Shown here: piece by piece, positions 4,036-32,383 of the stretch | Layout of the letters: each line of letters opens with the position of its first letter | How positions within the stretch are numbered: position 1 is the stretch's first letter | Assembly (NCBI GenBank): GCA_963766885.1 | Contig: CAVYBO010000002.1 | Coordinates: 22,014-86,013 of the forward strand | Direction of reading: 5' to 3' | DNA: 64,000 nucleotides | Source: an uncultured bacterium | Lineage (GTDB): Bacteria; Patescibacteriota; Minisyncoccia; Phycocordibacterales; CAIRYW01 | The notes under the pieces: generated by a model | The model's database searches: none | What the model saw: the letters and a program-made list of their open reading frames with translations, nothing else | Told to the model about the DNA's origin: nothing | Position numbers and translations under genes: made by a program

Positions 4036-5266
4036 ATGAGACAATCTAAGCTATTTTCAAAAACACGATTTGAAGCTCCAAAAGACGAGCAATCAAAAAA
4101 CGCCGAGCTTTTGATTCGCTCCGGTTTTATTCACAAAGATATGGCAGGTGTTTATTCTTTCTTGCCTTTAGGACTGAAAGGTTTTAGAAAACATTCGCAA
4201 AATTATCCGCGAGGAAATGAACGCAATCGGAGCGCTAGAGGTTTCCTTGTCTTCGCTTCAGAGCAAAGAACTTTGGGAAAAGACAAACAGATGGAGTGAT
4301 GACGTGGTGGATAATTGGTTTAAGACAACACTCAAAAACGGCACAGAGCTTGGACTTGCTTTTACTCACGAAGAAGCGCTGACAAATATAATGACGGAAT
4401 ATATAAAAAGTTACCGCGATTTGCCGGTTTATGCATATCAATTTCAGACAAAATTCAGAAATGAACTTCGCGCCAAAAGCGGAATTTTGCGAGCCAGGGA
4501 ATTTTTGATGAAGGATCTTTACTCTTTTGATACAGATAAAGAAAAACATGAAATATTTTATGAAAAAGCCAAAGAAGCATACAAAAGAATTTTTGAGCGG
4601 GTAGGCATCGGAGATTCAACTTATCTGACATTTGCTTCAGGAGGCACTTTTGCCAAATTTTCCCATGAATTCCAGACCCTAACTTCTGCGGGAGAAGACA
4701 TTATTTATGTCGATAAGAAGAAGAAAATCGCTATAAATCAGGAGGTTTTGGATGATGAAGTGCTTGATGAGCTTGGACTTGACAGGGTAGAGCTGGTGGA
4801 AGAAAAAGCGGTTGAAGTTGGCAATATTTTTTCTTTGGCGTATAAATACTCTGAGGCGCTTGATCTTAAGTATCTGGATCAAAAAGGCGAAGCTAGACCT
4901 GTATTTATGGGTAGTTATGGAATCGGCCTAGGCAGATTGATGGGCGCTGTGGCAGAGATTTTTGGCAAAGAAGAAAGCATGGTTTGGCCGGAGGAGTTAT
5001 CGCCATTCAAACTGCATTTGATTTGTCTTTCAATGGGTGATGAAGAAGTTTCAAAAGTAAGCGAAAAAATATATAAAGAGTTGATTGAAGCGGGAATGGA
5101 AGTGCTTTTTGACGATAGAGATTTGAGGGCAGGAGAAAAATTGGCAGATGCTGATTTGATAGGAATTCCGATAAGAATTATTTCAAGCAAAAAAACAATG
5201 GAGAAAAACACTTTTGAAATCAAAGATGCCAAAACAGAAGAGATTAATTATTTGGACTGCAAATGA
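4036..5266 (+). CDS. proS: prolyl-tRNA synthetase (archaeal/eukaryal-type class II) with an apparent +1 frameshift near 4177-4180
   Basis: N-term MRQSKLF...SFLPLGLK in frame 1 continues as KVLENIRKIIREEMNAIGALEV... in frame 2 (ORFs 4036..4299 and 4217..5266); one extra A in the run GAAAG restores a contiguous ProRS. Confidence 0.75.
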
Positions 5267-5292
5267 AATCATAAAAAAATACAGCAACAAAT

Positions 5293-6354
5293 ATGGCAAA
5301 ACTTAAAGACAGAATTTTTGGAAGATTTTCAAACGATATCGGTATAGATTTGGGTACAGCAAACACTCTGGTCTGGATGAAAGGCGAAGGAATTGTTGTT
5401 AACGAACCATCTGTGGTTGCTTTGAATCAAAAAACTGGCCAGGTTGTGGCAGTCGGGCAAGCGGCAAAGGATATGATAGGCAGGACTCCAGGGCACATTG
5501 TGGCTGTAAGGCCTGTTGTTGAAGGGGTGATTTCTGATTTTGAAGTATGTGAAGAAATGCTTAATTATTTGATAAATAAAGCCAGTGAGAAAAAGCCAAA
5601 GTGGCTTGGTCCAAGAGTGGTCATTGGAGTGCCATCCGGAATAACCAATGTTGAAAGAAGGGCCGTCAAAGATGCTGCCAAAAACGCTGGCGCAAGAGAA
5701 GTGTATATTATTGAAGAGCCGATGGCTGGAGCAATCGGCATCGGACTTCCTATAAAAGATCCACTCGGAAGCATGGTTATAGATATCGGCGGCGGCACCA
5801 CGGATGTGGCGGTTATTTCTTTGGGTGGACTTGTCCATTCGCGTAACATAAAAATTGCGGGCGATAAATTAAACAACGATATAATTTCTTATTTAAGAAA
5901 TGAGTTTAAAATTCTTATTGGAGAAAAAACAGCGGAGGATATAAAAATAAACGTTGGCAATGCTTCTAATATAGATTCTCCGATGGAAATTATGGTTCGT
6001 GGACGTGACCTTATTACAGGACTTCCTCGCGAGGTTGTGGTTACTGACAACGATGTCAAAGAAGCTATAGGTCTTTCTATAGACACCCTGATTGAATCAA
6101 TCAAAGAAGTGATCGAAATTACACCTCCAGAAGTGGTTTCCGATCTTATGTATAAAGGCATTTATGTGATCGGTGGCGGGGCGCTGCTACGCGGACTGAA
6201 AGAACTTCTTGAAGAAAGTCTTAAAATGCCGATACATGTTGCCGATGATCCGCTTACTGCTGTCGTCAGAGGCACGGGCGCAGTGCTTTCTGATATCGAT
6301 AGTTTTAAGGATGCTTTGATACAAAAGGAGGATGAAATGCCTTTCATTCAATAA
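5293..6354 (+). CDS. mreB: rod shape-determining protein MreB
   Basis: 353 aa; GIDLGTANTLVW, DIGGGTTDVAVISLGG; followed by mreC, mreD and PBP2. Confidence 0.9.
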   Translation: MAKLKDRIFGRFSNDIGIDLGTANTLVWMKGEGIVVNEPSVVALNQKTGQVVAVGQAAKDMIGRTPGHIVAVRPVVEGVISDFEVCEEMLNYLINKASEKKPKWLGPRVVIGVPSGITNVERRAVKDAAKNAGAREVYIIEEPMAGAIGIGLPIKDPLGSMVIDIGGGTTDVAVISLGGLVHSRNIKIAGDKLNNDIISYLRNEFKILIGEKTAEDIKINVGNASNIDSPMEIMVRGRDLITGLPREVVVTDNDVKEAIGLSIDTLIESIKEVIEITPPEVVSDLMYKGIYVIGGGALLRGLKELLEESLKMPIHVADDPLTAVVRGTGAVLSDIDSFKDALIQKEDEMPFIQ

Positions 6355-6357
6355 AAA

Positions 6358-7101
6358 ATGATGAAAAGAAATAACGAGAGCGGTTTGCTCAAATTTGCTG
6401 TTAAGATTTTTGTTTTGGGAATTATTGTGATAGCGCTGCTTTTTCCTTTTAGTGAATTGTTAAAAAAATGGTCGCTTGAAGGAAAGAATTTTACAAATAA
6501 TTTTCCGGGAATGTCTTTTTTTTACAGCAAAGCCTTTCTTTATAAGCAAAATCAGAATTTAGAGAATCAGGTGGCCGTTCTTCAAACACAGGTTTCCGAC
6601 AGGAAACTTTTAGAAGACAAACTCCAGGATTTTTCAAGTTTTGAAAAAGTTTCTGCTGGTTCATTGGCGGCTGAGGTTCTTACTACGCCAGGCAGTTCAA
6701 TTTATGATGTTCTTACGATTTCTGCAGGAAGCGATCAGTCTGTCAAACAGGGAGATATTATTTATTCTGGCAATACCAAAATCGGCTTTATATCAAAAGT
6801 ATTCAGCAATATTTCCGAAGCTACGCTTTTTTCTTCTCCAGGAGAAAAAATCAGTGCAACAATTTATCCTGAAGGCATAACTTTGGATATTGACGGTATT
6901 GGCGGAGGTCTTTTTGAGGCGCTTTTACCCAAGGGTCAGAATATAGATGTTGGAGATTTGGCAGTCGATTTGAAAAATAAACAAGTTATGGGCATAATAG
7001 AAAGCGTTTCTGCCGGAGGAAATAACTCGTTTAACAAACTTATAATAAGGACTCCCGTGAATCCTTTTGAATTAAAATGGGTATCAGTAGCGATAAAATA
7101 A
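6358..7101 (+). CDS. mreC: rod shape-determining protein MreC
   Basis: N-terminal TM, coiled-coil (LENQVAVLQTQVSDRKLLED) then beta-rich domain; position between mreB and mreD. Confidence 0.7.
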   Translation: MMKRNNESGLLKFAVKIFVLGIIVIALLFPFSELLKKWSLEGKNFTNNFPGMSFFYSKAFLYKQNQNLENQVAVLQTQVSDRKLLEDKLQDFSSFEKVSAGSLAAEVLTTPGSSIYDVLTISAGSDQSVKQGDIIYSGNTKIGFISKVFSNISEATLFSSPGEKISATIYPEGITLDIDGIGGGLFEALLPKGQNIDVGDLAVDLKNKQVMGIIESVSAGGNNSFNKLIIRTPVNPFELKWVSVAIK

Positions 7102-7349
7102 TTTGGAGCTTAAGCGCTTTTGTTGCGGCTATGCTGTCAGTATTTTTTTTGCCGTGGTATATTTCTATTTTTTTTCTTATAATTCTCATCTTATCAGGAT
7201 ATAACGCTATTTCAATAATAACAGCCGTTCTCTTGGATAATTTATACGGACAGGGATCAGTATTGCAAGAGCATTTGTTCTTCTTGGCGACGTTTATTTT
7301 CTTGCTTATTGTTTTTGTAGTAAAAAAAAATCTAAGGTGGTTAAATTAA
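7077..7349 (+). CDS. mreD: MreD-like small membrane protein
   Basis: 90 aa, three hydrophobic helices, overlaps the mreC end; position-based call. Confidence 0.45.
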   Translation: MGISSDKIIWSLSAFVAAMLSVFFLPWYISIFFLIILILSGYNAISIITAVLLDNLYGQGSVLQEHLFFLATFIFLLIVFVVKKNLRWLN

Positions 7350-9068
7350 ATGTTTGGCAGAAAAAGAACTAGAAAGAAAAAAAGCAACGGAAATATTGAT
7401 CCTGATGAAATATTCCTAGATTCATCCAATCTTCCTCAGTTTGATAAGCAGCAATTTGAGGGAAGAATTGAAAGGCCGATTGGAAAAAAAACTTTTTTTA
7501 TTTTAGGATTTTTTTTGGCCTTGATTTTTTTTGTTATTTCTATAAGAGCCTTTGATTTAGATGTGCTTAATTTTTCTTTTTACAGCCAAAAGAGCGCCAA
7601 TAATAGGCTCCGAAAGGACACGGTGTTTGCTTATCGCGGAGTTGTCACTGACAGAAACGGAGTTCCCCTGGCATGGAATGATCCGTCTTCAGGCGGACCG
7701 TTTCCTTTGAGAAAATATACAAGTGCCCCGGGATTTTCTCTACTTTTGGGATTTGTAAGATATCCGCGCAAAGATTCATCGGGCTTTTATTATGATAATG
7801 AAATTTCTGGACAAGACGGGATAGAGAAATATTTTGATAGTCAGCTTGCTGGACAAAACGGAGTCAAACTAACGGAAGTTGATTCTGCCGGCAAAACTGT
7901 TTCTCAAAGTGTTTTGAATCAGCCAAAAAATGGCGATAATATAAAGTTGTCTATTGATGCTGGGATTCAAGAACAACTTTTTAATTCCATCAAAAGCGCG
8001 GTTGATAAGGATGGTTTTTTAGGCGGAGCAGCGGTCATAATGGACGCAAAGACTGGGGAAGTTATCGCCATTACTTCATATCCTGAATATAGCTCGCAGG
8101 TTATGACTGATGCAACCGATACACCCCTGATAGATTCATATCTTAAAGAATCAGGAAATCCTTTTTTGAATATGGCGGTTTACGGACTTTTTGCTCCGGG
8201 CTCAACTATCAAGCCATATCTTGCTACCGCAGCTTTGAAAGAGGGTACGATTGATCCTTCCAAAAAGATTTTGAGTACCGGAGAACTTGTGGTTCCAAAT
8301 CCTTACGATCCATCAAAGCCAAATATTTTCAAAGACTGGAAAGTGAACGGCTGGACAAATATGGAGCAGGCTTTGGCTGTCTCTTCTGATGTGTATTTCT
8401 ATGAACTCGGAGGAGGATATAAAGATCAAGTTGGTTTGGGTATTTCAAGGATTGATGAATATTTAAATGATTATTTATTCGGAACACCCACTCAAGGATT
8501 TTTTGCAGGCCCAACAGGCAATATTTCAAGTCCGGAGTGGAAGGAAAAAAATTTTGATGGAGCAAGCTGGCTTTTGGGAGACACTTATCACACGGCGATA
8601 GGCCAATATGGCACAACTGTGACACCTCTTCAGCTTGCAAGGGCGCTGACTGGAATTGTTAATAATGGAACTATTCTTGAGCCTGTAATTTTGAAAGGAC
8701 AAGTTGGACAAAAAACAAATCTTCCGAATATTTCAGCTAGCGATTTTCAGGTGGTCAAAGACGGAATGAGGCTTGCTGTAACAAGCGGTACAGGAATTGC
8801 ATTAAATATACCAGGTGTGGAAGTTGCCGCTAAAACAGGAACAGCCCAGTTGGGATTGAATAACGAGTATGTTCATTCTTGGGTTGAAGGGTTTTTTCCA
8901 TACAACAATCCGAGGTATACTTTCGCCCTTATTCTTGAAAGTGGCCCAGATTCTTATCAGGTCAGCTCTATGAGAGCAATGAGCAATACTATAAGCTGGA
9001 TAGTCAAAAATGAGCCTAATTATTTAGGTAATTCTAGTACCACAACAGCCACTACAACCACTGTTTAA
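7350..9068 (+). CDS. mrdA: penicillin-binding protein 2 (elongasome transpeptidase)
   Basis: 572 aa; N-terminal TM, SxxK (GSTIKP), SxN (SSD), KTG (KTGTAQ) motifs; follows mreBCD. Confidence 0.85.
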   Translation: MFGRKRTRKKKSNGNIDPDEIFLDSSNLPQFDKQQFEGRIERPIGKKTFFILGFFLALIFFVISIRAFDLDVLNFSFYSQKSANNRLRKDTVFAYRGVVTDRNGVPLAWNDPSSGGPFPLRKYTSAPGFSLLLGFVRYPRKDSSGFYYDNEISGQDGIEKYFDSQLAGQNGVKLTEVDSAGKTVSQSVLNQPKNGDNIKLSIDAGIQEQLFNSIKSAVDKDGFLGGAAVIMDAKTGEVIAITSYPEYSSQVMTDATDTPLIDSYLKESGNPFLNMAVYGLFAPGSTIKPYLATAALKEGTIDPSKKILSTGELVVPNPYDPSKPNIFKDWKVNGWTNMEQALAVSSDVYFYELGGGYKDQVGLGISRIDEYLNDYLFGTPTQGFFAGPTGNISSPEWKEKNFDGASWLLGDTYHTAIGQYGTTVTPLQLARALTGIVNNGTILEPVILKGQVGQKTNLPNISASDFQVVKDGMRLAVTSGTGIALNIPGVEVAAKTGTAQLGLNNEYVHSWVEGFFPYNNPRYTFALILESGPDSYQVSSMRAMSNTISWIVKNEPNYLGNSSTTTATTTTV

Positions 9069-9641: not shown

Positions 9642-11108
9642 ATGTCTTTGGAAGATATTAGAAATATCAGGCTGCAAAAGCTTGCTAAAATAAAAGCGGC
9701 TGGCATTGATCCGTATCCGGCAACTTCGGCGCGCACACATTCTATATTTGATGCGATATCAAATTTTGATACATTTGTAGCAAGTGAAGAAAAGGTTACT
9801 CTTGCTGGCAGAATAATGTCGCAGAGAATTCAAGGAGGCTTGGCCTTTTTGGATATTTTTGACGGTTCTGGAAAGTTTCAAGTTTTAATAAAAAAAGATG
9901 ATGCAGAAGATGAAGCTTTTGACTTTTTTGTGGAGGTTGCAGACATAGGAGACTTCGCAGAATTTTCGGGAACGCTTTTTAGTACAAAAACAAATCAAAA
10001 AACTTTAAAAGCAAAAAATTGGAGAATGCTTTCAAAGGCTCTTTTGCCGCTGCCTGAAAAATGGCACGGACTTCAAGATCCGGAAGAAAAACTACGTAAA
10101 AGATATTTAGATATGCTTTTTGATCCAGAAGCTCAGGATTTATTTAAAAAGAAAGCGGCCTTTTGGGAAGCGACAAGGAATTTTCTAAAAGACAGGGGAT
10201 TTTTGGAAGTGGAAACGCCAACATTAGAAGTGACAACTGGCGGAGCGGAAGCAAGACCATTCAAGACACATCACAATGCGCACGGACTTGATGTTTTTCT
10301 TCGTATTTCTGTCGGCGAGCTTTGGCAGAAGCGTTTGATGGCTGCAGGATTTCCAAAAACTTTTGAGATTGGAAGAATCTATAGAAATGAAGGATCAAGC
10401 GCGGACCATCTTCAGGAATTTACAAATATGGAATTTTATATGGCCTATGCTGGCTTCTTTGAGGGAATGATTTTGGTAAAAGAAATGTGTAGAGAAATTG
10501 CAGAAAAAGTTTTTGGAACTACAAAATTTTCTACACGCGGACATAATTTTGATTTGTCAGATGAATGGAAGGAGATAGATTATATTGAGGAAATCAAAAA
10601 ACAGACCGGAATAGACATAAATAAATCATCAGAAAAGGAAATAATAAAAAAACTTCAAGAACTGAAAGTGGAGTACGAAGGAGACAATCTCGAACGTCTA
10701 ACAGACTCATTGTGGAAATATTGCCGAAAAAATATTGCAGGCCCTGCATTTTTGGTGAATCATCCAAAGATGATTGCGCCTTTGGCCAAGTCAAATTATC
10801 AGTCAAATTCTGATCAGTCAGACACGGTACAAAGATTCCAGGTTATTCTTGCAGGAAGCGAAGTTGGAAACGGATATTCAGAGCTCAATGATCCAATCGA
10901 ACAAAGAAAACGATTTGATGAGCAACAAAATATGATTGAACACGGTGATGAAGAAGCGATGATGGCTGATTTTGAGTTTGTGGAGATGCTTGAATATGGA
11001 ATGCCGCCGACTTGCGGCTTCGGATTCGGTGAACGCCTTTTTGCTTTTCTTGTAGACAAACCTGTTCGCGACGTTGCAATGTTTCCATTGGTTCGGCCAA
11101 AAGAATAA
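9642..11108 (+). CDS. lysS: lysyl-tRNA synthetase (class II)
   Basis: 488 aa; OB-fold N-term, class II motifs (FRNEG..., GSEVGNGYSELNDP, GFGFGERL). Confidence 0.9.
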   Translation: MSLEDIRNIRLQKLAKIKAAGIDPYPATSARTHSIFDAISNFDTFVASEEKVTLAGRIMSQRIQGGLAFLDIFDGSGKFQVLIKKDDAEDEAFDFFVEVADIGDFAEFSGTLFSTKTNQKTLKAKNWRMLSKALLPLPEKWHGLQDPEEKLRKRYLDMLFDPEAQDLFKKKAAFWEATRNFLKDRGFLEVETPTLEVTTGGAEARPFKTHHNAHGLDVFLRISVGELWQKRLMAAGFPKTFEIGRIYRNEGSSADHLQEFTNMEFYMAYAGFFEGMILVKEMCREIAEKVFGTTKFSTRGHNFDLSDEWKEIDYIEEIKKQTGIDINKSSEKEIIKKLQELKVEYEGDNLERLTDSLWKYCRKNIAGPAFLVNHPKMIAPLAKSNYQSNSDQSDTVQRFQVILAGSEVGNGYSELNDPIEQRKRFDEQQNMIEHGDEEAMMADFEFVEMLEYGMPPTCGFGFGERLFAFLVDKPVRDVAMFPLVRPKE

Positions 11109-11203: not shown

Positions 11204-11764
11204 TTACAATTCCATGGCGGTGGCCATGAGGTATTGCATATTGCTGACCAGGTTTTCGTGGAACTTGAACCCGGGATCCTCAGGGTGAGTGAACGGACGT
11301 CCGGTTTGAAGACCTGACGGGAAGGTTTTACCTTCCGTTTCCATCCACTCCGCGAAGTCGGCGAGCTTGTCGAACCATTCCTCCGACATGGCGCCGGCGA
11401 ACTGGCCGAGTTCCTTGTTGGTGAGGGTGAACTCACAACCGAGAGCGACCGCCGCTTCCTGCCCGAAGAAGACTTCCCGCGGAAAGATGGCGTCCTGAAC
11501 ACCGCAGTAGCGGATGTCGTAGAACACCGGAGCGGCGCGAAAGGTTGTGAGTTCCCCCGCGTGCTCGATTTGCCCCAGAATGACGATCAAACTGGGGAAA
11601 GGGTTGGTGGAGTTGTAGTCGTAGTTTTCCGCGTCCGTGGGTTCCACGACGCGCCAGATTTGGCCGGACAGAATTTCCGCCGGCTTGGTTTGGTTCTGCG
11701 GCGGCATATCCAGCAAAGGATGGAGCGCCAGAGGAAGGATTTTTTTGAGGTCTGCGATTTTCAT
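11204..11764 (-). CDS. hypothetical protein encoded in a GC-rich (about 58%) patch; likely horizontally acquired
   Basis: 186-aa ORF MKIADLKKILPLALHP...; local GC far above the about 35% flanks, and the overlapping shadow ORFs in other frames are typical of GC-rich DNA; no recognisable family. Confidence 0.45.
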   Translation of the reverse strand: MKIADLKKILPLALHPLLDMPPQNQTKPAEILSGQIWRVVEPTDAENYDYNSTNPFPSLIVILGQIEHAGELTTFRAAPVFYDIRYCGVQDAIFPREVFFGQEAAVALGCEFTLTNKELGQFAGAMSEEWFDKLADFAEWMETEGKTFPSGLQTGRPFTHPEDPGFKFHENLVSNMQYLMATAMEL

Positions 11765-12096: not shown

Positions 12097-12531
12097 ATGT
12101 TAATAGGAGAATACAAACATTCAATAGACGAAAAAAACCGAATGTCGCTGCCAAGCAAATTCCGCAAGGAATTGGGCAAGAAAGTGGTGGCGACATACGG
12201 GCTTGAACAATGTTTGTTTGTCTACGAAATATCGGAATGGAACAGAATCGCTGAGGATATTTCAAAGCTTGGAATGTTAAAAAGCGATACGCGAGAATTT
12301 AACAGATTTATGTTTGGAGGAGCGGTAGAAATTGAGGTTGATGCGCTTGGCAGAATTTTGGTTCCAGAATATCTCAAAAAATATGCGGATCTCAAGGGAA
12401 ATGCCGTGGTCATCGGAGTTCACAAAAGGCTTGAAATCTGGAACGAGAAGAAGTGGGAGGAATACAAGAAAGCGATAGTTTCAAAAGCAGATGGATTAGC
12501 AGAAAAGCTTTCGGAAGCAGGTGCTTTCTAA
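12097..12531 (+). CDS. mraZ: transcriptional regulator MraZ
   Basis: 144 aa; MLIGEYKHSIDEKNRMSLPSKFR, duplicated SpoVT/AbrB-like halves. Confidence 0.9.
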   Translation: MLIGEYKHSIDEKNRMSLPSKFRKELGKKVVATYGLEQCLFVYEISEWNRIAEDISKLGMLKSDTREFNRFMFGGAVEIEVDALGRILVPEYLKKYADLKGNAVVIGVHKRLEIWNEKKWEEYKKAIVSKADGLAEKLSEAGAF

Positions 12532-16836: not shown

Positions 16837-17436
16837 TTAACGTCTTCGGAAAACTAGAGCTATTACACCCAAGGCAACGAATACGCAGTACAAAATGCTT
16901 GGCTCAGGCACGCTCATCTGGAGTGCGGGCGTTTGAGTTTCTGCTCCCGCGCTGATTTGCTGTAGAGCCGAAGTGTCTTTTGTGCTTGCAACGCTAACGT
17001 AATCGATCGCCCAAGTGTAGCTACCGGTAACCGTCGGAACGACATCGTCGAGGTTGAAGACAAATTCACGACTGGTGCCCTCTGGAATTACATACCAGAA
17101 TGCATCATCTCCGCTGATTGGAGTGGGAGCAAGCATGTCCGGATCGATGTTTTCTTCAGTGTCCAATGTTGGACTTGCGGCGACGCCGTTGATTGTGAAT
17201 GTGAATCCATCGTCACCGAGCGGAACTGATGCTCTGCGGACGTACTCAGTTTGGGTATCCGCGGAGATATTGATATCGATTCCGAAGTAACCCAATTCCT
17301 CGTAGGTGCTAGAGTACTCTGGTTTTTGCACCTCGTAGGAGGCGCATTCCGTCCAGTTCACGCTTACTTGGGTTGCGTTTGCCGAAGTGATTCCTACCCA
17401 AGAGAGTAGGACCAGTAAAGAATATTTAAAGTTCAT
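16837..17436 (-). CDS. PEP-CTERM-type secreted protein (signal peptide plus C-terminal VPEP-TM-RRR sorting signal), GC-rich
   Basis: Start at MNFKYSLLVLLSWVGITSANA (the ORF track extends further upstream); C-terminus ...VPEPSILYCVFVALGVIALVFRRR; local GC about 50% versus about 35% genome. Confidence 0.6.
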   Translation of the reverse strand: MNFKYSLLVLLSWVGITSANATQVSVNWTECASYEVQKPEYSSTYEELGYFGIDINISADTQTEYVRRASVPLGDDGFTFTINGVAASPTLDTEENIDPDMLAPTPISGDDAFWYVIPEGTSREFVFNLDDVVPTVTGSYTWAIDYVSVASTKDTSALQQISAGAETQTPALQMSVPEPSILYCVFVALGVIALVFRRR

Positions 17437-17470
17437 AATCAGAAAAACACTAACATAAATACTTAATTTT

Positions 17471-18523
17471 GTAAAGATACACGTATAGGTCCAATAGCTT
17501 GGCACCACTTTGGTGGGTTAACATCAAAGGTATGCCATACACAACAAATAAGAATATGCCGAAGATTAGGCAACAAGCAGCTGATTTAGTCAGAAGAGGT
17601 TGGAGCAGAAGAAAGGTTGGTCGATATTTGGGATTTCACCATACAGCGATATCTGAATGGGTCAGAATTGCAAAGAAAATAGGGTATCATCCCATACTAA
17701 CAAGATCATCAAGACCGAAACATCATCCCCAACAATTGGATGAAAGAATCATTAGAAAAATCGTGGAGAAAAGATTAGAGCATGGTCGATATGCGGAAGC
17801 GGTACACAGGGAGCTTCAAAACGATGGTGTGAAAGTTTCTTTGTCATCAGTCAAAAGAACTCTCGACCGGAAGAGACTCATCAAAAAGAGAAGTCCGTAC
17901 AAACGATTCCATCCTCACCAAGATCGCCCATATCCCTTGAAATCAGGCGATTTGGTGCAAATTGATACTATTCATCGGATGGTTGATGGAAAGAAAAGAC
18001 TGTACGTGTTTGTGGTCATTGATGTATTTTCAAGATGGACATACGCAAAAGCATTTGAACGGATGAATGCAAGAACAAGTATTGATTTTGTCAGAGCAGC
18101 GCAAAGAGAATCGTCCTTCCATTTTGATATGTTGCAGTCAGACCATGGACCAGAGTTTGGTAAGTGGTTTGTCTCAAATATCAAAAAGAGCCACAGGTAT
18201 ACCAGAATTGGCAAACCCAATGACAATGCTCATATCGAAAGATTCAACAGGACTCTACAGGAAGAATGCCTGGACAAAGTTCCTAACGATATTCGAATTA
18301 TCAATTGTGCTTTGAAGAAATATTTGAGATATTACAATTTTGAGCGAGTGCACGGAGGAATCAATTATTCAATTCCCATGCAGGTGGTGTGAAGCTATTG
18401 ATTAGATTACGGTATTCAAAATCTTTCGTACCAAGTTAATTGAATGGCAAAGATTTGGAGAGATGCTTTCTAAACAAGATTAGACGCTTGCAATATTTCT
18501 ATACTTTTGTACCATATTAAACA
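17471..18523 (+). mobile_element. IS481-family insertion sequence (putative ends)
   Basis: Transposase ORF flanked by imperfect inverted ends beginning TGT (17471 tgtaaagatacacgtatagg versus reverse complement of 18498-18523 tgtttaatatggtacaaaagtataga); ends are approximate. Confidence 0.4.
17499..18392 (+). CDS. IS481-family (DDE/rve integrase core) transposase
   Basis: N-terminal HTH (GWSRRKVGRYLGFHHTAISEWV), DDE triad (QIDTI, SDHGPEF, NAHIERFNRTL); the track start is TTG, internal ATGs at 17532/17556 are more likely starts. Confidence 0.8.
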   Translation: MAPLWWVNIKGMPYTTNKNMPKIRQQAADLVRRGWSRRKVGRYLGFHHTAISEWVRIAKKIGYHPILTRSSRPKHHPQQLDERIIRKIVEKRLEHGRYAEAVHRELQNDGVKVSLSSVKRTLDRKRLIKKRSPYKRFHPHQDRPYPLKSGDLVQIDTIHRMVDGKKRLYVFVVIDVFSRWTYAKAFERMNARTSIDFVRAAQRESSFHFDMLQSDHGPEFGKWFVSNIKKSHRYTRIGKPNDNAHIERFNRTLQEECLDKVPNDIRIINCALKKYLRYYNFERVHGGINYSIPMQVV

Positions 18524-23468: not shown

Positions 23469-24080
23469 TTGCTTTTGAAATTTTGCTTTGTTAAGCTTGG
23501 CAAAGTTATGTTCAATAAAGCCATTATTATTCTTGAAGTAAAGCCGTTTCCGCCCAGAGCTCCAGCTGATTATGTTCCCCAAAGAACCTGGGAAGAGCTA
23601 CTTGAAATTGCTGCTCAGCACGGTGATTGGATTTCGATCCAAACGCATCGATGGTTTCGGGGCAGTTTCGATCTCATCTCGCGGGCGAGAAGTCTGACTG
23701 ACAAACCGATTTTGGCCAAAGGCTGGCACACCGACGATGAGGTGGAGCAACTGATTGAAATAGGAGCAACCAATGTTCTCGTGATCAACAGGATTCCGCA
23801 TACCAGATACAACAGTCAGTGCTTGATCGAGCCATATTACCGTGAAGAGTTCTTGAGGATTCCGCCGGAATTCAAAATGGTATGGAATTCCAGAGATCTC
23901 TTTGCTCTGGAAAATCAACTACCTCAAGGTGTGAAGGAAGATTTCTCAATCATCCGAGATCTGCGTCCAGATGTCTGGCTCTGCCAAGCGTCCAACATCA
24001 AGAAAGTGACAGATATCCATCCTGAGGCCAATGCGGCGCTGATTGGGACGAATCTCGAGGAATTTGTGGCTTCGCTTTGA
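23469..24080 (+). CDS. indole-3-glycerol-phosphate synthase (TrpC)-like TIM-barrel protein, N-terminally short, GC-rich; possibly a remnant
   Basis: IILEVKPFPP, PILAKGWHTDDEVEQLIEIGATNVLVI, WNSRDLFAL resemble TrpC motifs (IIAEVKKASP / PxLxKDFIxDxYQIxEAxxxGADxVLLI / GINNRDL); only 203 aa; GC about 50%. Confidence 0.4.
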   Translation: MLLKFCFVKLGKVMFNKAIIILEVKPFPPRAPADYVPQRTWEELLEIAAQHGDWISIQTHRWFRGSFDLISRARSLTDKPILAKGWHTDDEVEQLIEIGATNVLVINRIPHTRYNSQCLIEPYYREEFLRIPPEFKMVWNSRDLFALENQLPQGVKEDFSIIRDLRPDVWLCQASNIKKVTDIHPEANAALIGTNLEEFVASL

Positions 24081-26652: not shown

Positions 26653-26727
26653 GTAAAACTATTCTATCAGTCTCAAAATAATAAAAAAGCTTGAAAAAGG
26701 GGAATAGGTGTGTGTAATGTGGGGAGA

Positions 26728-26790
26728 ACAAATTTTTATTAAAAACAGGCCACCATCGCCTCTGTGGGATGGTGGCCTTCTGTTGTTTTT
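26728..26790. terminator. bidirectional intrinsic terminator hairpin
   Basis: ggccaccatc-gcctctgtgg-gatggtggcc (10-bp stem) with T-runs on both strands. Confidence 0.5.
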
Positions 26791-27190
26791 GGTTCGGTTC
26801 GAGCCCTGGTTTTTGGTCGCCTTGTGGAAACCAATCAGCAGGGTAGTTCGCCGTGCTAAAGAACCTTTCTATCACTTCTCGCGTCTGTTTGGTGATTAGC
26901 CAACAACACGTGTGCGCAATTTGTTTATTCGGTTTGCGATTACCGCCGGATTCACGTCTGCGATTGCTCGCATTTGTTATTCTGACACTTGCCCTAACGC
27001 AAGTTCCTCTCAGCCGAGTGTGCTTTTACATTTATATCCCTGCCCGCGTCGGTTTATCCAGGCCTCCAGCCTCCCCGGAGGGTTTAAGAGTAAGAGCGGT
27101 TTTGGGCGGCAGCTGCCTGATTCCGATGTCAGACTCGGTCTATCAGATCTGCTTGGCTGCCGGGCCGATGGGATCACCCCATCATAATTA
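26790..27190 (-). ncRNA. candidate structured ncRNA: GC-rich (about 52%) ORF-free region bounded by a terminator; strand and identity unresolved
   Basis: No protein-like ORF (the ORFs here are Cys/Arg/Ser-rich shadows); GC-rich helices; weak similarity to RNase P CR-II/III and CR-V on the + strand and to the 4.5S motif GCAGCCAAGGCAGAU on the - strand; none conclusive. Confidence 0.3.
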
Positions 27191-27340
27191 ATCATTTTTT
27201 TGATGTAGGTGCCGAAGTATGCAAGTTTGCCTGCAGACACTAGCTAGTTTGCATATACTCCTCGACGGAAAATAAAATACTATATTTAATTATTTTGTCA
27301 ATAGTTATGAAAGTTTGAATCCAGTTTATAATTCTCGACT

Positions 27341-28024
27341 ATGAAGGCGGTTATATTTGCAGCAGGAAAGGGCACCAGAATGGGCGATTTGAGCCTGGAA
27401 ACCCCAAAACCGATGCTCAAGGTGTTGGGGAAGACTCTTTTGGAGCACAAACTTGATATGCTACCTGAATCAATTGACGAGGTGATCATTGTTATTGGAC
27501 ATTTGAAAAATATAGTCACAGATTTTTTGGGTGATTCTTATGGAAACAGAAAAATCACTTACGTCGTCCAAGAAGAACTTTTGGGCACAGCGCACTGCTT
27601 GTTTTTGTGCAAAGAGATTATGAAAAATGAGAAAAAATTTTTGGTAATGATGGGAGACGACATTTATTGTAGGGAAGATATGGAAGAGTGCTTAAAATAT
27701 GATTGGTCGATTCTGGTTCGAGAATCAGATTCTGTTTTGGACAAAGCCAAAGTTATTTTTGATTCAAAAGGACATATTACTGATATTCTTGAAAAATATA
27801 ATGTTGATGAAAAAGGATTTATCTGCGCCGGAATGTATTCTTTGACTCCAAAAATATTTGATTACAAAATGGTGCAGTTTGCCGGCGGAGAATACGGATT
27901 GCCTCAGACAATTCTTTCTGCAAGGAATGACGTTAATATCAAAGCTGTTCAATCGCGCTTTTGGCTTCAAATCACGGCCCCTGAAGATCTAAAAATGGCC
28001 GAGACTTTTCTTTCTATCGAGTAA
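27341..28024 (+). CDS. sugar-phosphate nucleotidyltransferase (NTP_transferase family)
   Basis: 227 aa; MKAVIFAAGKGTRMG...P(K)PML signature of G1P/M1P nucleotidyltransferases. Confidence 0.75.
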   Translation: MKAVIFAAGKGTRMGDLSLETPKPMLKVLGKTLLEHKLDMLPESIDEVIIVIGHLKNIVTDFLGDSYGNRKITYVVQEELLGTAHCLFLCKEIMKNEKKFLVMMGDDIYCREDMEECLKYDWSILVRESDSVLDKAKVIFDSKGHITDILEKYNVDEKGFICAGMYSLTPKIFDYKMVQFAGGEYGLPQTILSARNDVNIKAVQSRFWLQITAPEDLKMAETFLSIE

Positions 28025-29432
28025 TTTCTTGACCGTTTGGGGTGTCTTTGATTTCAAATCCAAGAGATTTTATTTTGTTTCTGATTTCATCTGACTTTTT
28101 AAAATCTTTATCTTCTTTGGCGAGTTTTCTTTCTTCAAGAAGATTCTTAATCTCTTCGGTGATTTCAATTTCTTGTTTTTTAGCAGACGCCAATCCAAGC
28201 CCAAGAACTTTATCAAATTCCAAAATTGTGGATTTTTTATCAGCATCAGAAATTTTAGAATCTTTTATCAAATCCCACATAATTGCAATTGCTTTTGGAG
28301 TTTCCAAGTCGTCATTTACAGCTTCAATAAATTTATCAAAATATTTTGTATTAATTTTTCCAACACTATTTATTTCCAAAACAAAATTCAAAAGTTTTTT
28401 GTATGCGTTTTGTGCAGCTTCTATTGCTTCCAATGAATAATCAACACGCGTGGAATATTTGGAAGTCAAAAGCCAGTAGCGGTAGGCTAGGGGACTGATA
28501 CCTTTTTCTTTGAGAGTTTGCAAAGTAATAAAATTTTCTCCGCTCTTGGCCATCTTGCTTTCTTTGTTGTCTTGCTTGATTGTCAGGTGGTTGCTATGAA
28601 TCCAGTAGTTTGCCAAAAGTTCGCCTGTTAGAGCCTCAGACTGGGCGATTTCGTTGTTGTGGTGCACTGGAATATGATCCACTCCGCCCGTGTGGATATC
28701 AAAGTGATTTCCCAAATATTCCATAGCCATTGCAGAACATTCGATATGCCAACCAGGGAAGCCTTTGCCTAAAGCTGAGTCAAAACCGATTCCGTTATTA
28801 TCGGCAAATTTCCAAAGTGCAAAGTCGCGTGGACTTTTTTTCTCACTATTTACTCCAATGCGAGATTCCATTTCTGAATCTGCGCCGCCAAGCATCCCAT
28901 AATCTGGAAGTTTTTTTGTATCAAAATAAATTCCATCAGAAGTTGGATAAGCAAATCCTTTTTTAACGAGCTCTGCTACAAAATCAGATTCTTCTTTGAT
29001 GTGCTCGCTTGCAACAACATATTTTTCTGGAGTGATAATATTTATCTCTTCAAAATCTTTTTGGAATGCTTTTGTATAAATTTCCGCAACTTCTTTTAAT
29101 CCATCAAGTGTGAATGGTTTGTTTTCACGCTTCAAAGCTTTGACCATTTTGTCTTCACCCTCGTCTGCGTCACTCGTCAAATGCCCGATGTCTGTAATGT
29201 TTATGATGTGCTCAACTTTGAGATTATTTATTTCCAAAACTCTTTTGATAGTGTCGGCAAAAACGTATGCGCGAAGGTTGCCAATATGAAGATAATTGTA
29301 GACAGTTGGCCCGCAAGTATACATTTTTGCAACACCATTTTTGATAGGTTTAAATTGCTCCTTTTTGCGGCCAAGAGTGTTAAAAAGATAAATTTTAGGC
29401 AGAGTTTTTTTCTTGTTTTTCTGAAAAAACAT
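28014..29432 (-). CDS. cysS: cysteinyl-tRNA synthetase
   Basis: 472 aa; HIGN (HIGH), KMAKSGENF (KMSKS), Cys-binding motifs. Confidence 0.9.
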   Translation of the reverse strand: MFFQKNKKKTLPKIYLFNTLGRKKEQFKPIKNGVAKMYTCGPTVYNYLHIGNLRAYVFADTIKRVLEINNLKVEHIINITDIGHLTSDADEGEDKMVKALKRENKPFTLDGLKEVAEIYTKAFQKDFEEINIITPEKYVVASEHIKEESDFVAELVKKGFAYPTSDGIYFDTKKLPDYGMLGGADSEMESRIGVNSEKKSPRDFALWKFADNNGIGFDSALGKGFPGWHIECSAMAMEYLGNHFDIHTGGVDHIPVHHNNEIAQSEALTGELLANYWIHSNHLTIKQDNKESKMAKSGENFITLQTLKEKGISPLAYRYWLLTSKYSTRVDYSLEAIEAAQNAYKKLLNFVLEINSVGKINTKYFDKFIEAVNDDLETPKAIAIMWDLIKDSKISDADKKSTILEFDKVLGLGLASAKKQEIEITEEIKNLLEERKLAKEDKDFKKSDEIRNKIKSLGFEIKDTPNGQEITR

Positions 29433-29545: not shown

Positions 29546-30262
29546 ATGAATAAAATTGACGAAAGGCTGATAATCGGTCTGGATGTCCCAACTGTGGGGA
29601 AAGCACTCCACATCATTGACCAACTGGGCGACACGCCTTGGGGGTACAAGATCGGACCTGAAATGGTGCTGACGCAAGAACTGGAAACTCTTACTCGCGC
29701 AATTAAAAACGTGCGAGCGCGGATTTTCCTGGATAACAAGTGGGCCAATACTCCTGATGTGACGGCGGCGTGCGTTAAGCGCGCCGGCGACTGGGGTTTT
29801 GACATGTGCAACATTATGCTCGATGGTACTGGGCCGGAGATGATTGAGAAGTCTGCCGAATCTGCCGCTTCTTATCCCGAGATGATGCTTCTTGGAGTCA
29901 CTGTGCTGACAACGCGTGATGATAACTCACTCAAGGCAACGGGGGTTTCTGATGGCCGCGAGGCACAAGTGATTCGGCTTGCGGGGCTTGCAAAGAACTC
30001 GGGCATTAATGTTCTTGTTGCAAGCTCAAACGAAATCGTTCCTCTGAGGGGGGAGAAGTTCGGCAATTTCTTCGGTCTTGTTGTACCGGGCACTCGTTCG
30101 GCTGGCGCAGATGCGAAGGATCAAAAGAACATTACTTTGCCTGCGGTGGCGCTTCAGCGTGGAGCAAATTGGCTTGTAATTGCAAGCCAGGTTGTAAAAG
30201 CCGAAAACCCCAAGCAGGCTTACGACGATCTTGTGGCTGAAATTCAAGAAGCCTGTCTCTAA
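29546..30262 (+). CDS. pyrF: orotidine-5'-phosphate decarboxylase, GC-rich
   Basis: 238 aa; LIIGLDVP..., KIGPEM, DNKWANTP motifs of OMP decarboxylase; GC about 52%. Confidence 0.75.
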   Translation: MNKIDERLIIGLDVPTVGKALHIIDQLGDTPWGYKIGPEMVLTQELETLTRAIKNVRARIFLDNKWANTPDVTAACVKRAGDWGFDMCNIMLDGTGPEMIEKSAESAASYPEMMLLGVTVLTTRDDNSLKATGVSDGREAQVIRLAGLAKNSGINVLVASSNEIVPLRGEKFGNFFGLVVPGTRSAGADAKDQKNITLPAVALQRGANWLVIASQVVKAENPKQAYDDLVAEIQEACL

Positions 30263-30280
30263 ATTTCGTACAGCTTTTAA

Positions 30281-30310
30281 GCACCCAAACCTGGGTGCAA
30301 TTTTTATTTT
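30281..30310 (+). terminator. intrinsic terminator after pyrF
   Basis: gcacccaaacctgggtgc hairpin plus aatttttatttt. Confidence 0.6.
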
Positions 30311-30336
30311 ACATATTTTAAATTTGTGTTAGTTTA

Positions 30337-31035
30337 ATGGCAGGGAATAAGAGGGCAGAACATTTCAGAAAACAATCAAAAGAAGAAATCCTAATGCACA
30401 ATAATCAGAAAGGGTGGATTGAAAATTTCACCCAAATGGGCGCTTTTTGGCGTCATGACGGAAATCCGAAGCGGCCTCACGCGCTTCTTACAAAAGGCGG
30501 TCACAGCAACGGCTTCTTCAATGGCAATGTTGTTGTGGAGAATCCGGTCTGTCTGGATTCTGTGGCTTACGACATCACAAGGAAATGTGACTCATCCGTG
30601 GTCATCGATCGCGTTGTTGGTCCCGCAATGGGCGCCATCAAACTTGCTCATGATCTGGGCAGGAACCTGAAGGCCCTCGGCGGCTTTATGGTCAAAAAAG
30701 TCAGCGACGACAAAGGGGTTCTCTGGGTGCCGGATCGATTTCATCCGCTTCCTGCGGAGCGAATCGCGCCTTGCGAAGATACAATTACTACCGGCGGAAG
30801 CATTCTGGGGATGATTGAAGCCCTCGAAAGATTGGGGGCCGAAGTGCTTCCTTTCATCTTCGCCATTGTCAATCGCTCCGGTTTGACCGAAGTTAATGGC
30901 CGCGAGATCATCGCGCTCATCAACTGCCCGATGGACAACTGGAAGCCAGACGAATATCCGCTCTGCGCCGAAGGTTCACAGGCCATCCGGCCTAAGGAAG
31001 ACGACAACTGGTCGCTTCTGACCGCAGAGTACTAG
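30337..31035 (+). CDS. pyrE: type I phosphoribosyltransferase, probably orotate phosphoribosyltransferase (PyrE), GC-rich
   Basis: PRPP-binding motif LWVPDRF...CEDTITTGGSI; adjacent to pyrF; GC about 52%. Confidence 0.55.
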   Translation: MAGNKRAEHFRKQSKEEILMHNNQKGWIENFTQMGAFWRHDGNPKRPHALLTKGGHSNGFFNGNVVVENPVCLDSVAYDITRKCDSSVVIDRVVGPAMGAIKLAHDLGRNLKALGGFMVKKVSDDKGVLWVPDRFHPLPAERIAPCEDTITTGGSILGMIEALERLGAEVLPFIFAIVNRSGLTEVNGREIIALINCPMDNWKPDEYPLCAEGSQAIRPKEDDNWSLLTAEY

Positions 31036-31053: not shown

Positions 31054-31084
31054 GAGACGTTTCAAACCGTCTCAATTTTTTTAT
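31054..31084 (+). terminator. intrinsic terminator after pyrE
   Basis: gagacgtttcaaaccgtctc hairpin plus aatttttttat. Confidence 0.6.
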
Positions 31085-31138: not shown

Positions 31139-32383
31139 ATGAATTACAAACTTTGGGGCAAAAGAGTCGGTATCGGCGTTGTATCTGTTTTCCTTTTAAC
31201 CACAGCTTTTTTTGCAGGACTTTACACTGATGCACAACTTACTAGTAACGTTTCAACCGGAACGCCATCTTCTGTAATCAATCAAACTGTTGGGCAACCT
31301 TCAACTGCGGATTTCACTACATTTTGGAAAGTTTGGCAGCTTCTTGATCAAAATTTTGTTTATACCGGCACTTCAACTGCCACAACAACTTCCCAAGACA
31401 GGGAGTACGGGGCCATTCAAGGAATGGTGGCATCGCTTGGCGATCCGTATACTGAATTTTTCCCTCCCGAAGAAAATAAAGATTTCCAAACTGAACTTTC
31501 CGGAAGTGTCAGCGGAGTAGGAGTTGAAGTGGGTATTAAAAATAATTTAATCACTGTCATTGCTCCTGTAAAAGGTTCTCCTGCTGATTTGGCTGGAGTA
31601 AAGGCCGGAGATGAAATTGTTGGAGTAAACAGTAAAGATGTTACATCACTGAGCGCTGATGATGTTGTTAATCTGATTCGCGGTCCTGCAGGCACGCAAG
31701 TTTCTATAACTGTAAGCAGGAATGGCAGCGATGTTACATTGAATATGACAAGAGAGGAGATAACTGTTCCATCAGTAGAAACACAAAAAATCAGCAACGG
31801 CATCCTTCTTATCACCGTAAACGAATTTGATGTCGATGTGGCAGATCAGTTTAGAGATGCTTTGCGAGAATTTGTTTCCGGAGGGTATGACAAGATGATT
31901 ATTGATGTCCGAGACAATCCCGGCGGCTATCTTGACGGAGCGGTGGATATGGCAAGCTGGTTTGTACCGATTGCCAAAACTATTGTTACTGAAGATTTCG
32001 GCAATAGCTCCGGCAAGCAGCCGATTGTTCACAGAAGCTATGGCTACGGACCTATTGTTTCAAATGGAAACGTTGTGGTGCTTGTAAACGGCGGCAGCGC
32101 TTCTGCTTCAGAAATTTTTGCCGCAGCTCTTCAGGAATATGGAATTGCAAAGCTTGTCGGCGAGCAGACTTTTGGCAAAGGATCAGTGCAAGAATTGATC
32201 CCAGTTACAAGTGATACATCTCTAAAGGTTACAATTGCTCGCTGGCTTACCCCAACAGGAGAATCAATATCGGAAAAAGGTCTTACACCTGATTTTGTGA
32301 TACCTTTTACAGAAGCAGAAGCTGCATCAGGAACAGATCCGCAGCTTCAAAAAGCTGAAGATATATTAAACGGAAGTAATTAA
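31139..32383 (+). CDS. ctpA: carboxyl-terminal processing protease (S41) with PDZ domain
   Basis: 414 aa; signal/TM, PDZ (GSPADLAGVKAGDEIVGVN), S41 core VVLVNGGSASASEIFAAALQ...GKGSVQ. Confidence 0.85.
   Translation: MNYKLWGKRVGIGVVSVFLLTTAFFAGLYTDAQLTSNVSTGTPSSVINQTVGQPSTADFTTFWKVWQLLDQNFVYTGTSTATTTSQDREYGAIQGMVASLGDPYTEFFPPEENKDFQTELSGSVSGVGVEVGIKNNLITVIAPVKGSPADLAGVKAGDEIVGVNSKDVTSLSADDVVNLIRGPAGTQVSITVSRNGSDVTLNMTREEITVPSVETQKISNGILLITVNEFDVDVADQFRDALREFVSGGYDKMIIDVRDNPGGYLDGAVDMASWFVPIAKTIVTEDFGNSSGKQPIVHRSYGYGPIVSNGNVVVLVNGGSASASEIFAAALQEYGIAKLVGEQTFGKGSVQELIPVTSDTSLKVTIARWLTPTGESISEKGLTPDFVIPFTEAEAASGTDPQLQKAEDILNGSN

Follow-up and report, generated by a model that had tools for sequence, protein, structure and literature searches.

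A variant of the orotidine monophosphate decarboxylase family in a chimeric two-gene pyrimidine cassette of Patescibacteria

De novo nucleotide synthesis is absent from about 93% of Patescibacteria genomes, and the few biosynthetic genes found among them, with orotidine 5'-monophosphate (OMP) decarboxylase as one of the markers, are phylogenetically scattered (bioRxiv 10.64898/2026.06.21.733656). What, in such an organism, would a lone pair of genes resembling those for the last two steps of uridine monophosphate (UMP) synthesis be doing, and where did it come from? The question is raised by 64,000 nucleotides of contig CAVYBO010000002.1 (assembly GCA_963766885.1), the whole of which is referred to here as the window. 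The window has 38.5% GC and encodes two MreB paralogues, PBP2, Mur ligases, MraZ, many aminoacyl-tRNA synthetases and ribosomal proteins, a gene content that fits a small Patescibacteria genome, and the best named relatives of its DnaK (80–83% identity) belong to Candidatus Paceibacterota and Taylorbacteria. The pair consists of an OMP-decarboxylase-family gene (variant pyrF; 29546–30262, + strand, 238 aa) and a Patescibacteria-type gene resembling those for orotate phosphoribosyltransferase (OPRTase), here called the phosphoribosyltransferase (PRTase) gene (30394–31035, + strand, 213 aa). Domain matches and composition identify its left border as cysS (28014–29432, − strand), with a host-like GC of 0.362, and its right border is ctpA (31139–32383, + strand; GC 0.430), for a C-terminal processing protease with S41 peptidase and PDZ domains. 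A sequence-only reading had taken the pair for an acquired, GC-rich pyrF–pyrE module that converts scavenged orotate to UMP. The coordinates and low-GC flanks that it described are correct, as is its premise that reduced genomes commonly lack the de novo pathway, but the two genes differ in origin, the decarboxylase has an altered active site common to a small clade, and the high GC does not date the transfer.

The first gene belongs to the OMP decarboxylase (OMPDC) family on the evidence of Pfam, NCBIfam and PDB sequence matches as well as predicted structure. Its product matches Pfam OMPdecase PF00215 (E 1.4e-31; 110.5 bits against a cut-off of 27) and TIGR01740 (104.7 bits, above the cut-off of 92.3), while its score against the stricter equivalog model NF001273 (160.8 bits) lies under the cut-off of 193. 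The AlphaFold2 (AF2) model is confident (predicted local distance difference test, pLDDT, 92.8; predicted template-modelling score, pTM, 0.90) and forms an OMPDC-type (beta/alpha)8 barrel, and the top 50 PDB matches returned by Foldseek are chains aligning to OMPDCs (template-modelling score, TM, up to 0.89). Classical PyrF proteins of E. coli (1EIX), V. cholerae (3LDV) and K. pneumoniae (8CSO) share the same TIM barrel (TM 0.88–0.89, root-mean-square deviation 1.8–1.9 Å) at 27–31% identity. Close relatives are limited to three proteins (P0002 at 52% identity, P0003 at 41%, and P0241), which together with the window protein form a four-sequence clade at 39–56% identity.

The active sites of these four sequences were compared with those of 253 canonical sequences, with positions given in E. 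coli numbering; D22, K44, D71, K73, Q201, R192 of the PGIR motif and the TVLTS motif of classical PyrF all have counterparts in the window protein. All four clade members keep D13, K35, D63, K65, Q193 and the VLT[ST] motif, and the invariant D13 and K35 correspond to the first-subunit catalytic and ribose residues D22 and K44. Elsewhere the clade departs from positions that are almost fixed in canonical enzymes. For example, E. coli D76 is Asp or Glu in 100% of the canonical sequences (Asp in 250 and Glu in 3 of 253) and Asn in 4/4 of the variant clade (N68 in the window), I77 is canonically Ile (100%) and here Thr, N79 is Asn in 82% and here Asp (window D71), and T80 is Thr in 90% and Val in 4/4 (window V72). 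Similarly, R222, which is Arg in 99% of the canonical sequences, is Ser or Thr (window S214), and P223, canonically Pro, is Gln or Ala. The third position of DxKxxD is thus Asn throughout the clade, the window motif reading D63-N-K65-W-A-N68-T69-P-D71-V72 (codons 29732–29761), so that the classical DxKxxD-I-P-N-T is replaced by DxKWxN-T-P-D-V, the threonine that contacts the ribose 2'-OH is Val72, and the phosphodianion gripper G-R-P is A-S-Q, with Q193, the counterpart of yeast Q215 and E. coli Q201, kept but Ser214 (30185–30187) in the place of R222. Trp66, Cys88 and Arg124 (29915–29917) are common to the clade, and Arg124, which follows the VLT[ST] motif, occurs in 0/253 canonical sequences. 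R184 of the motif PGTR is kept in the window protein, while P0003 has Lys and P0241 has Thr in place of this second phosphate Arg (PGIR).

Eight unusual residues are common to all four sequences, the only ones known to carry these changes, and the clade has at least 70 invariant positions. The variant decarboxylase is, on this pattern of conservation, under constraint, and across the clade three residues are missing in a conserved, co-ordinated way. At the positions altered in the variant, the canonical OMPdecases of Patescibacteria retain D, I, T and R. In yeast OMPDC, the second subunit supplies D96' and T100', which act together with D37 in binding the hydroxyls of the ribose (PMC12874384). 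The AF2 model places residue 71 within the opening turn of the helix starting at P70. We favour a relocation of charges around the same substrate, whereby a carboxylate would have moved from position 68 to 71 and a positive charge from 214 to 124; this is preferred to a change of substrate because the partner in the window is an ordinary PyrE-family protein. Engineered OMPDCs (yeast D96'A, T100'A and R235A; M. thermautotrophicus D75N, 2ZZ4) are changed at the same positions as the natural clade, but these are single laboratory mutations with large losses of activity, whereas the clade combines joint changes with candidate compensators (D71 and R124) and is conserved in nature. A literature search for data on OMPDC D75N found nothing. 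It may tentatively be proposed that the four-member N-T-P-D-V/Arg124/Ser214 clade is a new subgroup of the OMPDC superfamily, either decarboxylating OMP by means of a relocated Asp and a rebuilt phosphate/ribose site, in which case it would be the first natural exception to DxKxxD, or acting on another substrate, and, as part of the same tentative proposal, that both cassette genes are held at ~52% GC in genomes of 35–43% GC by selection or turnover and not by recency. Since OMPDC is a benchmark of catalytic proficiency, a clade with Asn, an Asp at +3, Val and no gripper Arg would be a natural experiment on the rebuilding of an active site.

The decarboxylase is not of the Patescibacteria type. 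After its three close relatives, its next matches are classical PyrF proteins of Verrucomicrobiota, Alphaproteobacteria and Bacteroidota (35–41% identity), and it is 25–27% identical to the OMPdecases that accompany PRTase genes in Patescibacteria. Neighbour-joining recovered the variant clade as monophyletic in 100/100 bootstraps and the canonical Patescibacteria clade likewise in 100/100, and in 0/100 were the two sisters; distances from the variant clade are 1.0–1.1 to classical PyrF and 1.6–1.8 to the Patescibacteria type. The tree and distances group the decarboxylase with classical bacterial PyrF and mark it as foreign to the Patescibacteria type. The clade is also rare: a profile search of 1.84 billion representative proteins returned only two clade representatives (413 and 262 bits) before scores fell to 198 bits or less, and no relative above 52% identity (PyrF) or 53% (PRTase) was present in the large protein collection searched.

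The second gene tells a different story. It was initially listed as an open reading frame (ORF) at 30337–31035 (232 aa) encoding a type-I phosphoribosyltransferase, and library models and homologue alignments confirm the gene that the sequence-only reading had seen there, although the listed ORF is probably 19 residues too long. Because all homologues begin at its Met20, the true start is taken to be the ATG at 30394; the preceding 57 nt (30337–30393) form an AT-rich, noncoding leader, and the ATG at 30337 overlaps a putative promoter motif and has no homologue support. The protein has more than 600 relatives, the closest of which (44–53% identity over 88–95% of the length) include over 100 Patescibacteria proteins, with named members from Liptonbacteria, Wolfebacteria, Taylorbacteria and Parcubacteria/Paceibacterota, and others annotated as 'phosphoribosyltransferase family protein' or 'hypothetical'. 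Its phosphoribosyl pyrophosphate (PRPP) loop, C-E-D-T-I-T-T-G-G-S, aligns with the loops of the H. pylori and M. tuberculosis OPRTases, and the family-invariant residues (HDG, RPH, LLT, GxHS, GP..GA, ED..T.G.S, NRS and PLC) are all present, an agreement that counts as weak evidence because the invariant columns were computed with the window protein included.

Genomic context points to this family as the Patescibacteria form of PyrE. A profile search of genome contigs with the PRTase found at least 7–9 Patescibacteria loci and at least about 70 loci with Thermus-type pyrE. In one of the former, L009 (4896–9391; a Patescibacteria metagenome-assembled genome labelled Saccharibacteria, 52% GC), a complete operon runs pyrB (OTCace)–pyrC (amidohydrolase)–pyrD (DHO_dh)–PRTase–OMPdecase; this genome belongs to the minority with a de novo pathway, and the gene order shows a Patescibacteria-type PRTase apparently acting as PyrE. 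The same type of gene lies immediately 5' of an OMPdecase gene in 7 loci (L003, L005, L008, L009, L012, L013 and L103). Because of this operon and these adjacent loci, the PRTase is read as the Patescibacteria PyrE in spite of failed curated thresholds, and orotate would, by the same context, be its base. The pairs of L003 (Wolfebacteria), L005, L008, L012 and L103, and the L009 operon, carry members of the same PRTase family (42–53% identity), and resemble the window in that the two enzymes are adjacent, usually with no other pyr genes nearby, and GC-enriched relative to low-GC hosts. The arrangement differs, since the decarboxylase comes first in the window and the PRTase first in the Patescibacteria pairs, and since each gene of the window has its own terminator, whereas the pairs of L003, L005 and L103 are spaced tightly (12–36 nt).

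The order seen in the window is instead shared with pyrF–pyrE operons of Clostridia, Elusimicrobia, Acidobacteria and others that carry a Thermus/Helicobacter-type PyrE (TIGR01367; H. pylori HP1257, 4PAW), pyrF preceding pyrE, as is usual outside Patescibacteria, in at least about 24 non-Patescibacteria loci with Thermus-type pyrE among the matches listed. However, the window PRTase is distant from that type (E 1.7e-12 to 4PAW; 27–34% identity to those loci) and, unlike it, has the Patescibacteria-specific N-terminal WxHDGNPKRPHALLT. It is the PRTase in the same slot of locus L002, a non-orthologous protein 24% identical to that of the window, which is nearer to the Thermus/Helicobacter type (median 78.6 versus 59.3 bits to Thermus-type PyrE). 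The phylogenetic and family evidence together show the window pair to be a chimera, with a PRTase and a decarboxylase of different origins. The idea of a single imported unit fails on this evidence, and the foreign half is the PyrF, which falls outside the Patescibacteria PyrF clade, while the PRTase sits within a Patescibacteria-type family.

Synteny supports an insertion, although an old one. In L002 (GCA_029288615.1), which is the nearest relative of the window genome, the order is recR–dnaB–NTP transferase–cysS–(corA)–pyrF–PRTase–ctpA–L9–L27, with the pair at the same spot as in the window; flanking proteins are 52–73% identical between the two and PyrF 52%, so that pyrF seems as diverged as the neighbouring housekeeping genes, which supports vertical descent since insertion. 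Two more distant, still collinear loci have an empty site, L092 with recR–dnaB–cysS directly beside ctpA–L9–L27...gltX and L095 with dnaB–cysS–corA directly beside ctpA, and in CysS the window and L002 share 61% identity, the values to L092 and L095 being 43–51%. The site is thus polymorphic for presence and absence, filled in the window and L002 and empty in the other two, and the simplest history is one insertion into the divergent cysS/ctpA spacer before the lineages of the window genome and L002 parted. The pair was therefore rightly called acquired, to judge from the collinear empty sites, but the acquisition is not recent, because L002 carries a same-site pyrF at 52% identity and synonymous sites are saturated. 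The promoter-like TTTGAGATAAT of ctpA itself is kept in both filled and empty sites. No integrase gene and no tRNA were found among the pair's neighbours in the ORF and tRNA lists, flanking repeats not having been searched for. Neither Joint Genome Institute (JGI) metagenome contigs nor IMG/VR viral contigs yielded a variant-clade sequence when scanned, which leaves the idea of a phage vehicle or of a GC-rich reservoir unsupported.

Related genes occupy other sites. L087 has its variant pyrF in the interval from groEL to lemA, with a third, very divergent PRTase behind it; this 281-aa neighbour was at one point considered not to be a PRTase, a view dropped because it matches Pribosyltran, if weakly (E 0.0056), and contains a PRPP-like loop. 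In L103 (GCA_040384245.1), a Patescibacteria genome of 58% GC, a canonical PRTase–OMPdecase pair separates the L5 gene from the S14 gene of the spc ribosomal-protein operon. A small cassette for the two final reactions of UMP synthesis would thus circulate in Patescibacteria, settling in unrelated sites (cysS/ctpA, groEL/lemA in L087 and the spc operon in L103). A Peptidase_C39-like gene was also observed upstream of the pair in L103 (positions 5162–7423 of that locus).

If the insertion is old, why are the genes still GC-rich? Their composition is as the sequence-only reading had described it, about 52% GC, with 0.515 for pyrF and 0.531 for the PRTase gene where the 67 other ORFs average 0.387 (sd 0.041; z = 3.1 and 3.5), and with GC at third codon positions (GC3) of 0.52 and 0.60 against a mean of 0.346; the two rank 3rd and 2nd in composition among 69 ORFs. 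The deviation is real but provides no date for the transfer, since it recurs elsewhere. The variant pyrF has a GC of 0.515, 0.542, 0.529 and 0.529 in the four clade members, whose host DNA has 0.38, 0.43, 0.35 and 0.35, respectively, and its PRTase partners have 0.52–0.53. PRTase and OMPdecase genes are GC-enriched (0.43–0.58) in 11/11 low-GC Patescibacteria loci examined (host GC below 0.45, spanning 0.35–0.43: L002, L003, L005, L011, L012, L013, L087, L088, L102, L104 and the window), with a GC3 of 0.47–0.70 except in L003. GC richness is a recurrent trait of both gene families in low-GC Patescibacteria. Fourfold degenerate sites under identical amino acids agree between the window and L002 pyrF in 16% of cases, against 25% predicted by composition, and such sites in the cassette have 0.44–0.52 GC (window and L002 copies) versus 0.31–0.38 in flanking orthologues. 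Because synonymous sites are randomised yet GC-enriched, the high GC is not the fading donor signature of one ancient transfer. Two explanations of its persistence remain, selection or a biased process acting on synonymous sites, or repeated replacement from a shared pool of ~52% GC. Replacement and insertion do occur, as is evident from the non-orthologous PRTases of the window and L002 and from the varied insertion sites, including the spc operon of L103. For genome analysis, the locus offers a clear example of high GC in an AT-rich genome without recent transfer.

What would the pair do for the cell? No homologue of pyrB, pyrC or pyrD was found in the 64-kb window by blastp with the pyr-operon ORFs of about 70 loci, the other genes of the window are housekeeping genes, and pairs of PRTase and OMP-decarboxylase genes without other pyr genes recur in Patescibacteria; within the window, the pair is as isolated as had been supposed. 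Conversion of scavenged orotate to UMP is the most economical reading because the pair is an orphan, pyrB/C/D are absent from the window and de novo synthesis is mostly absent in Patescibacteria. Salvage of orotate would accordingly be the likeliest function of this two-gene terminal-pyrimidine cassette, a claim to which we give about an even chance. The history proposed for it runs as follows. The cassette entered the cysS/ctpA spacer in the last shared ancestor of the window genome (Paceibacteria) and L002, and its decarboxylase derives from a classical non-Patescibacteria PyrF. A Thermus-type pyrE probably came in with that gene, pyrF first and pyrE second as in L002 today; in the window lineage the pyrE slot would later have been refilled by a Patescibacteria-type gene. 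The active site of the decarboxylase is remodelled (Asn for Asp in DxKxxD, an Asp gained at +3, Val for Thr, Ser for the gripper Arg, and Arg124 as an addition), which we read as charges moved around the same substrate. In the cell, the Patescibacteria-type PRTase would make OMP from PRPP and scavenged orotate, the OMPDC-family enzyme would decarboxylate OMP to UMP, and a cell without the upstream pathway would gain a second route to pyrimidine nucleotides. The cassette could in this way open the use of orotate to organisms otherwise dependent on host nucleotides or RNA. A literature search on orotate, OPRTase or orotidine in Patescibacteria or the Candidate Phyla Radiation found nothing specific beyond one 2026 preprint.

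Several observations pull the other way. The DxKxxD motif (yeast D91, K93 and D96') is reported to be present in the OMPDC of all organisms, yeast D96'A has no detectable activity, and R235A and T100'A cost 5.6 and about 2.5 kcal/mol (PMC12874384, a 2025 review). The equivalents of yeast D96', R235 and T100' in the window protein are Asn, Ser and Val, and the second gripper Arg (E. coli R203) is Asn195. Because three residues that are 90–99% conserved in the 253 canonical sequences are absent, OMP decarboxylation by the variant is presumed rather than assured, and the name pyrF given to it from the sequence holds for its family match and OMPDC fold but only provisionally for its reaction. The PRTase misses every curated pyrE cut-off, its best model being TIGR01367 pyrE_Therm (82.6 bits versus a cut-off of 150.25), with TIGR00336 (36.1 versus 106.8) and Pfam Pribosyltran (25.9 versus 26.3) also sub-threshold, and the first Cys of the near-invariant CPLC is Tyr. 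The partner PRTases of L002 and L087 are very divergent, which might mean that the base used is not orotate. Lastly, the survey of the pathway covers 64 kb of a 596-kb contig, and an upstream pathway, a second pyrF, prs or an orotate transporter could lie in the other 532 kb.

Part of this evidence can be turned to a different account, in which the pair is neofunctionalised and the variant OMPDC-like enzyme, having given up OMP, decarboxylates or simply binds another nucleotide that the neighbouring PRTase makes from a different carboxylated base, or reads the ribose 2' position or phosphate differently. All the changes fall at the second-subunit residues of the ribose 2'-OH/Lys-Asp network (D76', I77' and T80') and at the gripper (R222 and P223), the new invariant Arg124 stands beside the Ser/Thr of the pyrimidine umbrella and is seen in 0/253 canonical sequences, the Arg of PGIR has become Lys in P0003 and Thr in P0241, and the partner PRTases are radically different among the three genomes. 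Nevertheless, the partner in the window is an ordinary member of the Patescibacteria PyrE family, D13, K35, D63, K65, Q193 and VLT[ST] are retained, the Asp at +3 and Arg124 fit charge relocation around the same ligand, and no candidate substrate is known, so that a new substrate seems unlikely, if worth keeping in view. That the decarboxylase is decaying or a catalytically dead pseudo-enzyme, and only the PRTase matters, would fit the loss of the essential Asp and the gripper Arg, and in the window copy that of the equivalent of E. coli R203. It is improbable for an ORF that is intact in four lineages at 39–56% identity with the same substitutions and at least 70 invariant positions, that yields a confident AF2 model (pLDDT 92.8), and that has its own terminator and leader in three genomes.

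Other accounts concern descent. Were the genes native and vertically inherited, their GC would stem from enzymes rich in Gly, Ala, Arg and Pro and the empty sites would be deletions; these residues do make up 28% of both proteins versus 21% in other ORFs, the PRTase family is typical of the host class (Liptonbacteria, Wolfebacteria and Taylorbacteria, the DnaK relatives being from Paceibacterota and Taylorbacteria), and the spacers and terminators are host-like. Such descent is hard to reconcile with the raised GC3 and fourfold sites (0.44–0.52 versus 0.31–0.38 in flanking orthologues), with two outgroup genomes that lack the pair in intact synteny, with a decarboxylase that never groups with the Patescibacteria PyrF clade, or with the unrelated context of the cassette in L087 (groEL/lemA) and of the canonical pair in the spc operon of L103, and we regard it as improbable. 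At the opposite end stands a recent transfer of a ready-made pyrF–pyrE operon from a donor of ~52% GC, its composition not yet ameliorated. The compositional z-scores of 3.1–3.5 would be expected of it, and an integrase of insertion-sequence (IS) type together with other GC-rich orphan genes show that foreign DNA does enter the genome. The results contradict it all the same and leave it very little credence: L002 has a syntenic copy with randomised fourfold sites (16% versus 25% expected), pyrF and the PRTase gene differ in origin, GC in the cassette's internal spacers is 27–39%, no relative exceeds 52% (PyrF) or 53% (PRTase) in the large protein collection searched, and JGI metagenome contigs and IMG/VR held no member of the variant clade. 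An old insertion, later made chimeric and with a remodelled decarboxylase, is the history we prefer.

Each cassette gene would be a separate transcription unit with host-type, AT-rich signals. The clean terminators attributed to the two genes are there, an intrinsic-terminator-like hairpin GCACCCAAACCTGGGTGC followed by AATTTTTATT at 30281–30308 (+ strand) and another, GAGACGTTTCAAACCGTCTC followed by AATTTTTTTA, at 31054–31083 (+ strand), each 19 nt 3' of the respective stop codon; the hairpin/T-run sites as called cover 30281–30298 and 31054–31073. Hairpins with a T-run number 8 across the window against a shuffle expectation of 6.9; because this is no excess, the evidential weight lies in the placement of the terminators and not in their number. 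Similar hairpins with AATTTTTAT lie 3' of the orthologous pyrF in L002 and L087, and in the window, L002 and L087 alike both genes of the pair end in such a host-style terminator. The spacer between the two genes (30263–30393) has 32% GC, and spacers inside and around the cassette have a host-like 0.27–0.39. Downstream of the first terminator, the AT-rich spacer and PRTase leader (30309–30393, + strand) contains TGTGTTAGTTT at 30325–30335, which is also found upstream of the PRTase gene in L002 (~7705–7715) and upstream of pyrF in L087 (~3606–3616) and may be a promoter element; TGTGTTAGTTT and the hairpin/AATTTTTAT terminators may be promoter and terminator signals typical of the lineage. Rfam searches revealed no RNA element, pyrimidine-responsive or otherwise, in the cassette or its leaders.

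Other parts of the window also deviate in composition. The most deviant of all is a 186-aa ORF at 11204–11764 (− strand; GC 0.565, GC3 0.73), between a class-II aminoacyl-tRNA synthetase gene (9642–11108) and mraZ (12097–12531), which has no match in Pfam, NCBIfam or PHROG and is probably foreign as well. A 223-aa protein with a PEP-CTERM-like C-terminus (16837–17508, − strand; GC 0.476, GC3 0.50) is encoded by a gene overlapping that for an IS-type transposase/integrase with rve, rve_3 and helix-turn-helix (HTH) domains (17499–18392, + strand). At 23469–24080 (+ strand; GC3 0.50), an orphan TIM barrel of ~190 aa resembles indole-3-glycerol phosphate synthase (IGPS; E 8.5e-7 to T. maritima IGPS 1J5T, with a sub-cut-off Pfam IGPS match) and is flanked by rmuC and the L21 gene; the syntenic region of L002 lacks a homologue. 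A shared mobile element was considered as the source of the GC-rich orphan ORFs of the window, L002 and L087 and was rejected, as these are not homologous to each other and have no PHROGs match. The 690-bp spacer between the divergent dnaB and NTP-transferase genes (26653–27340) reaches 53% GC, its equivalent in L002 being ~215 bp; no Rfam match was obtained for it at E ≤ 1, and folding z-scores are only −1.2 on either strand. Finally, the two MreB/Mbl paralogues of this very small genome are both full-length (628–1641 and 5293–6354, + strand) and lie less than 5 kb apart.

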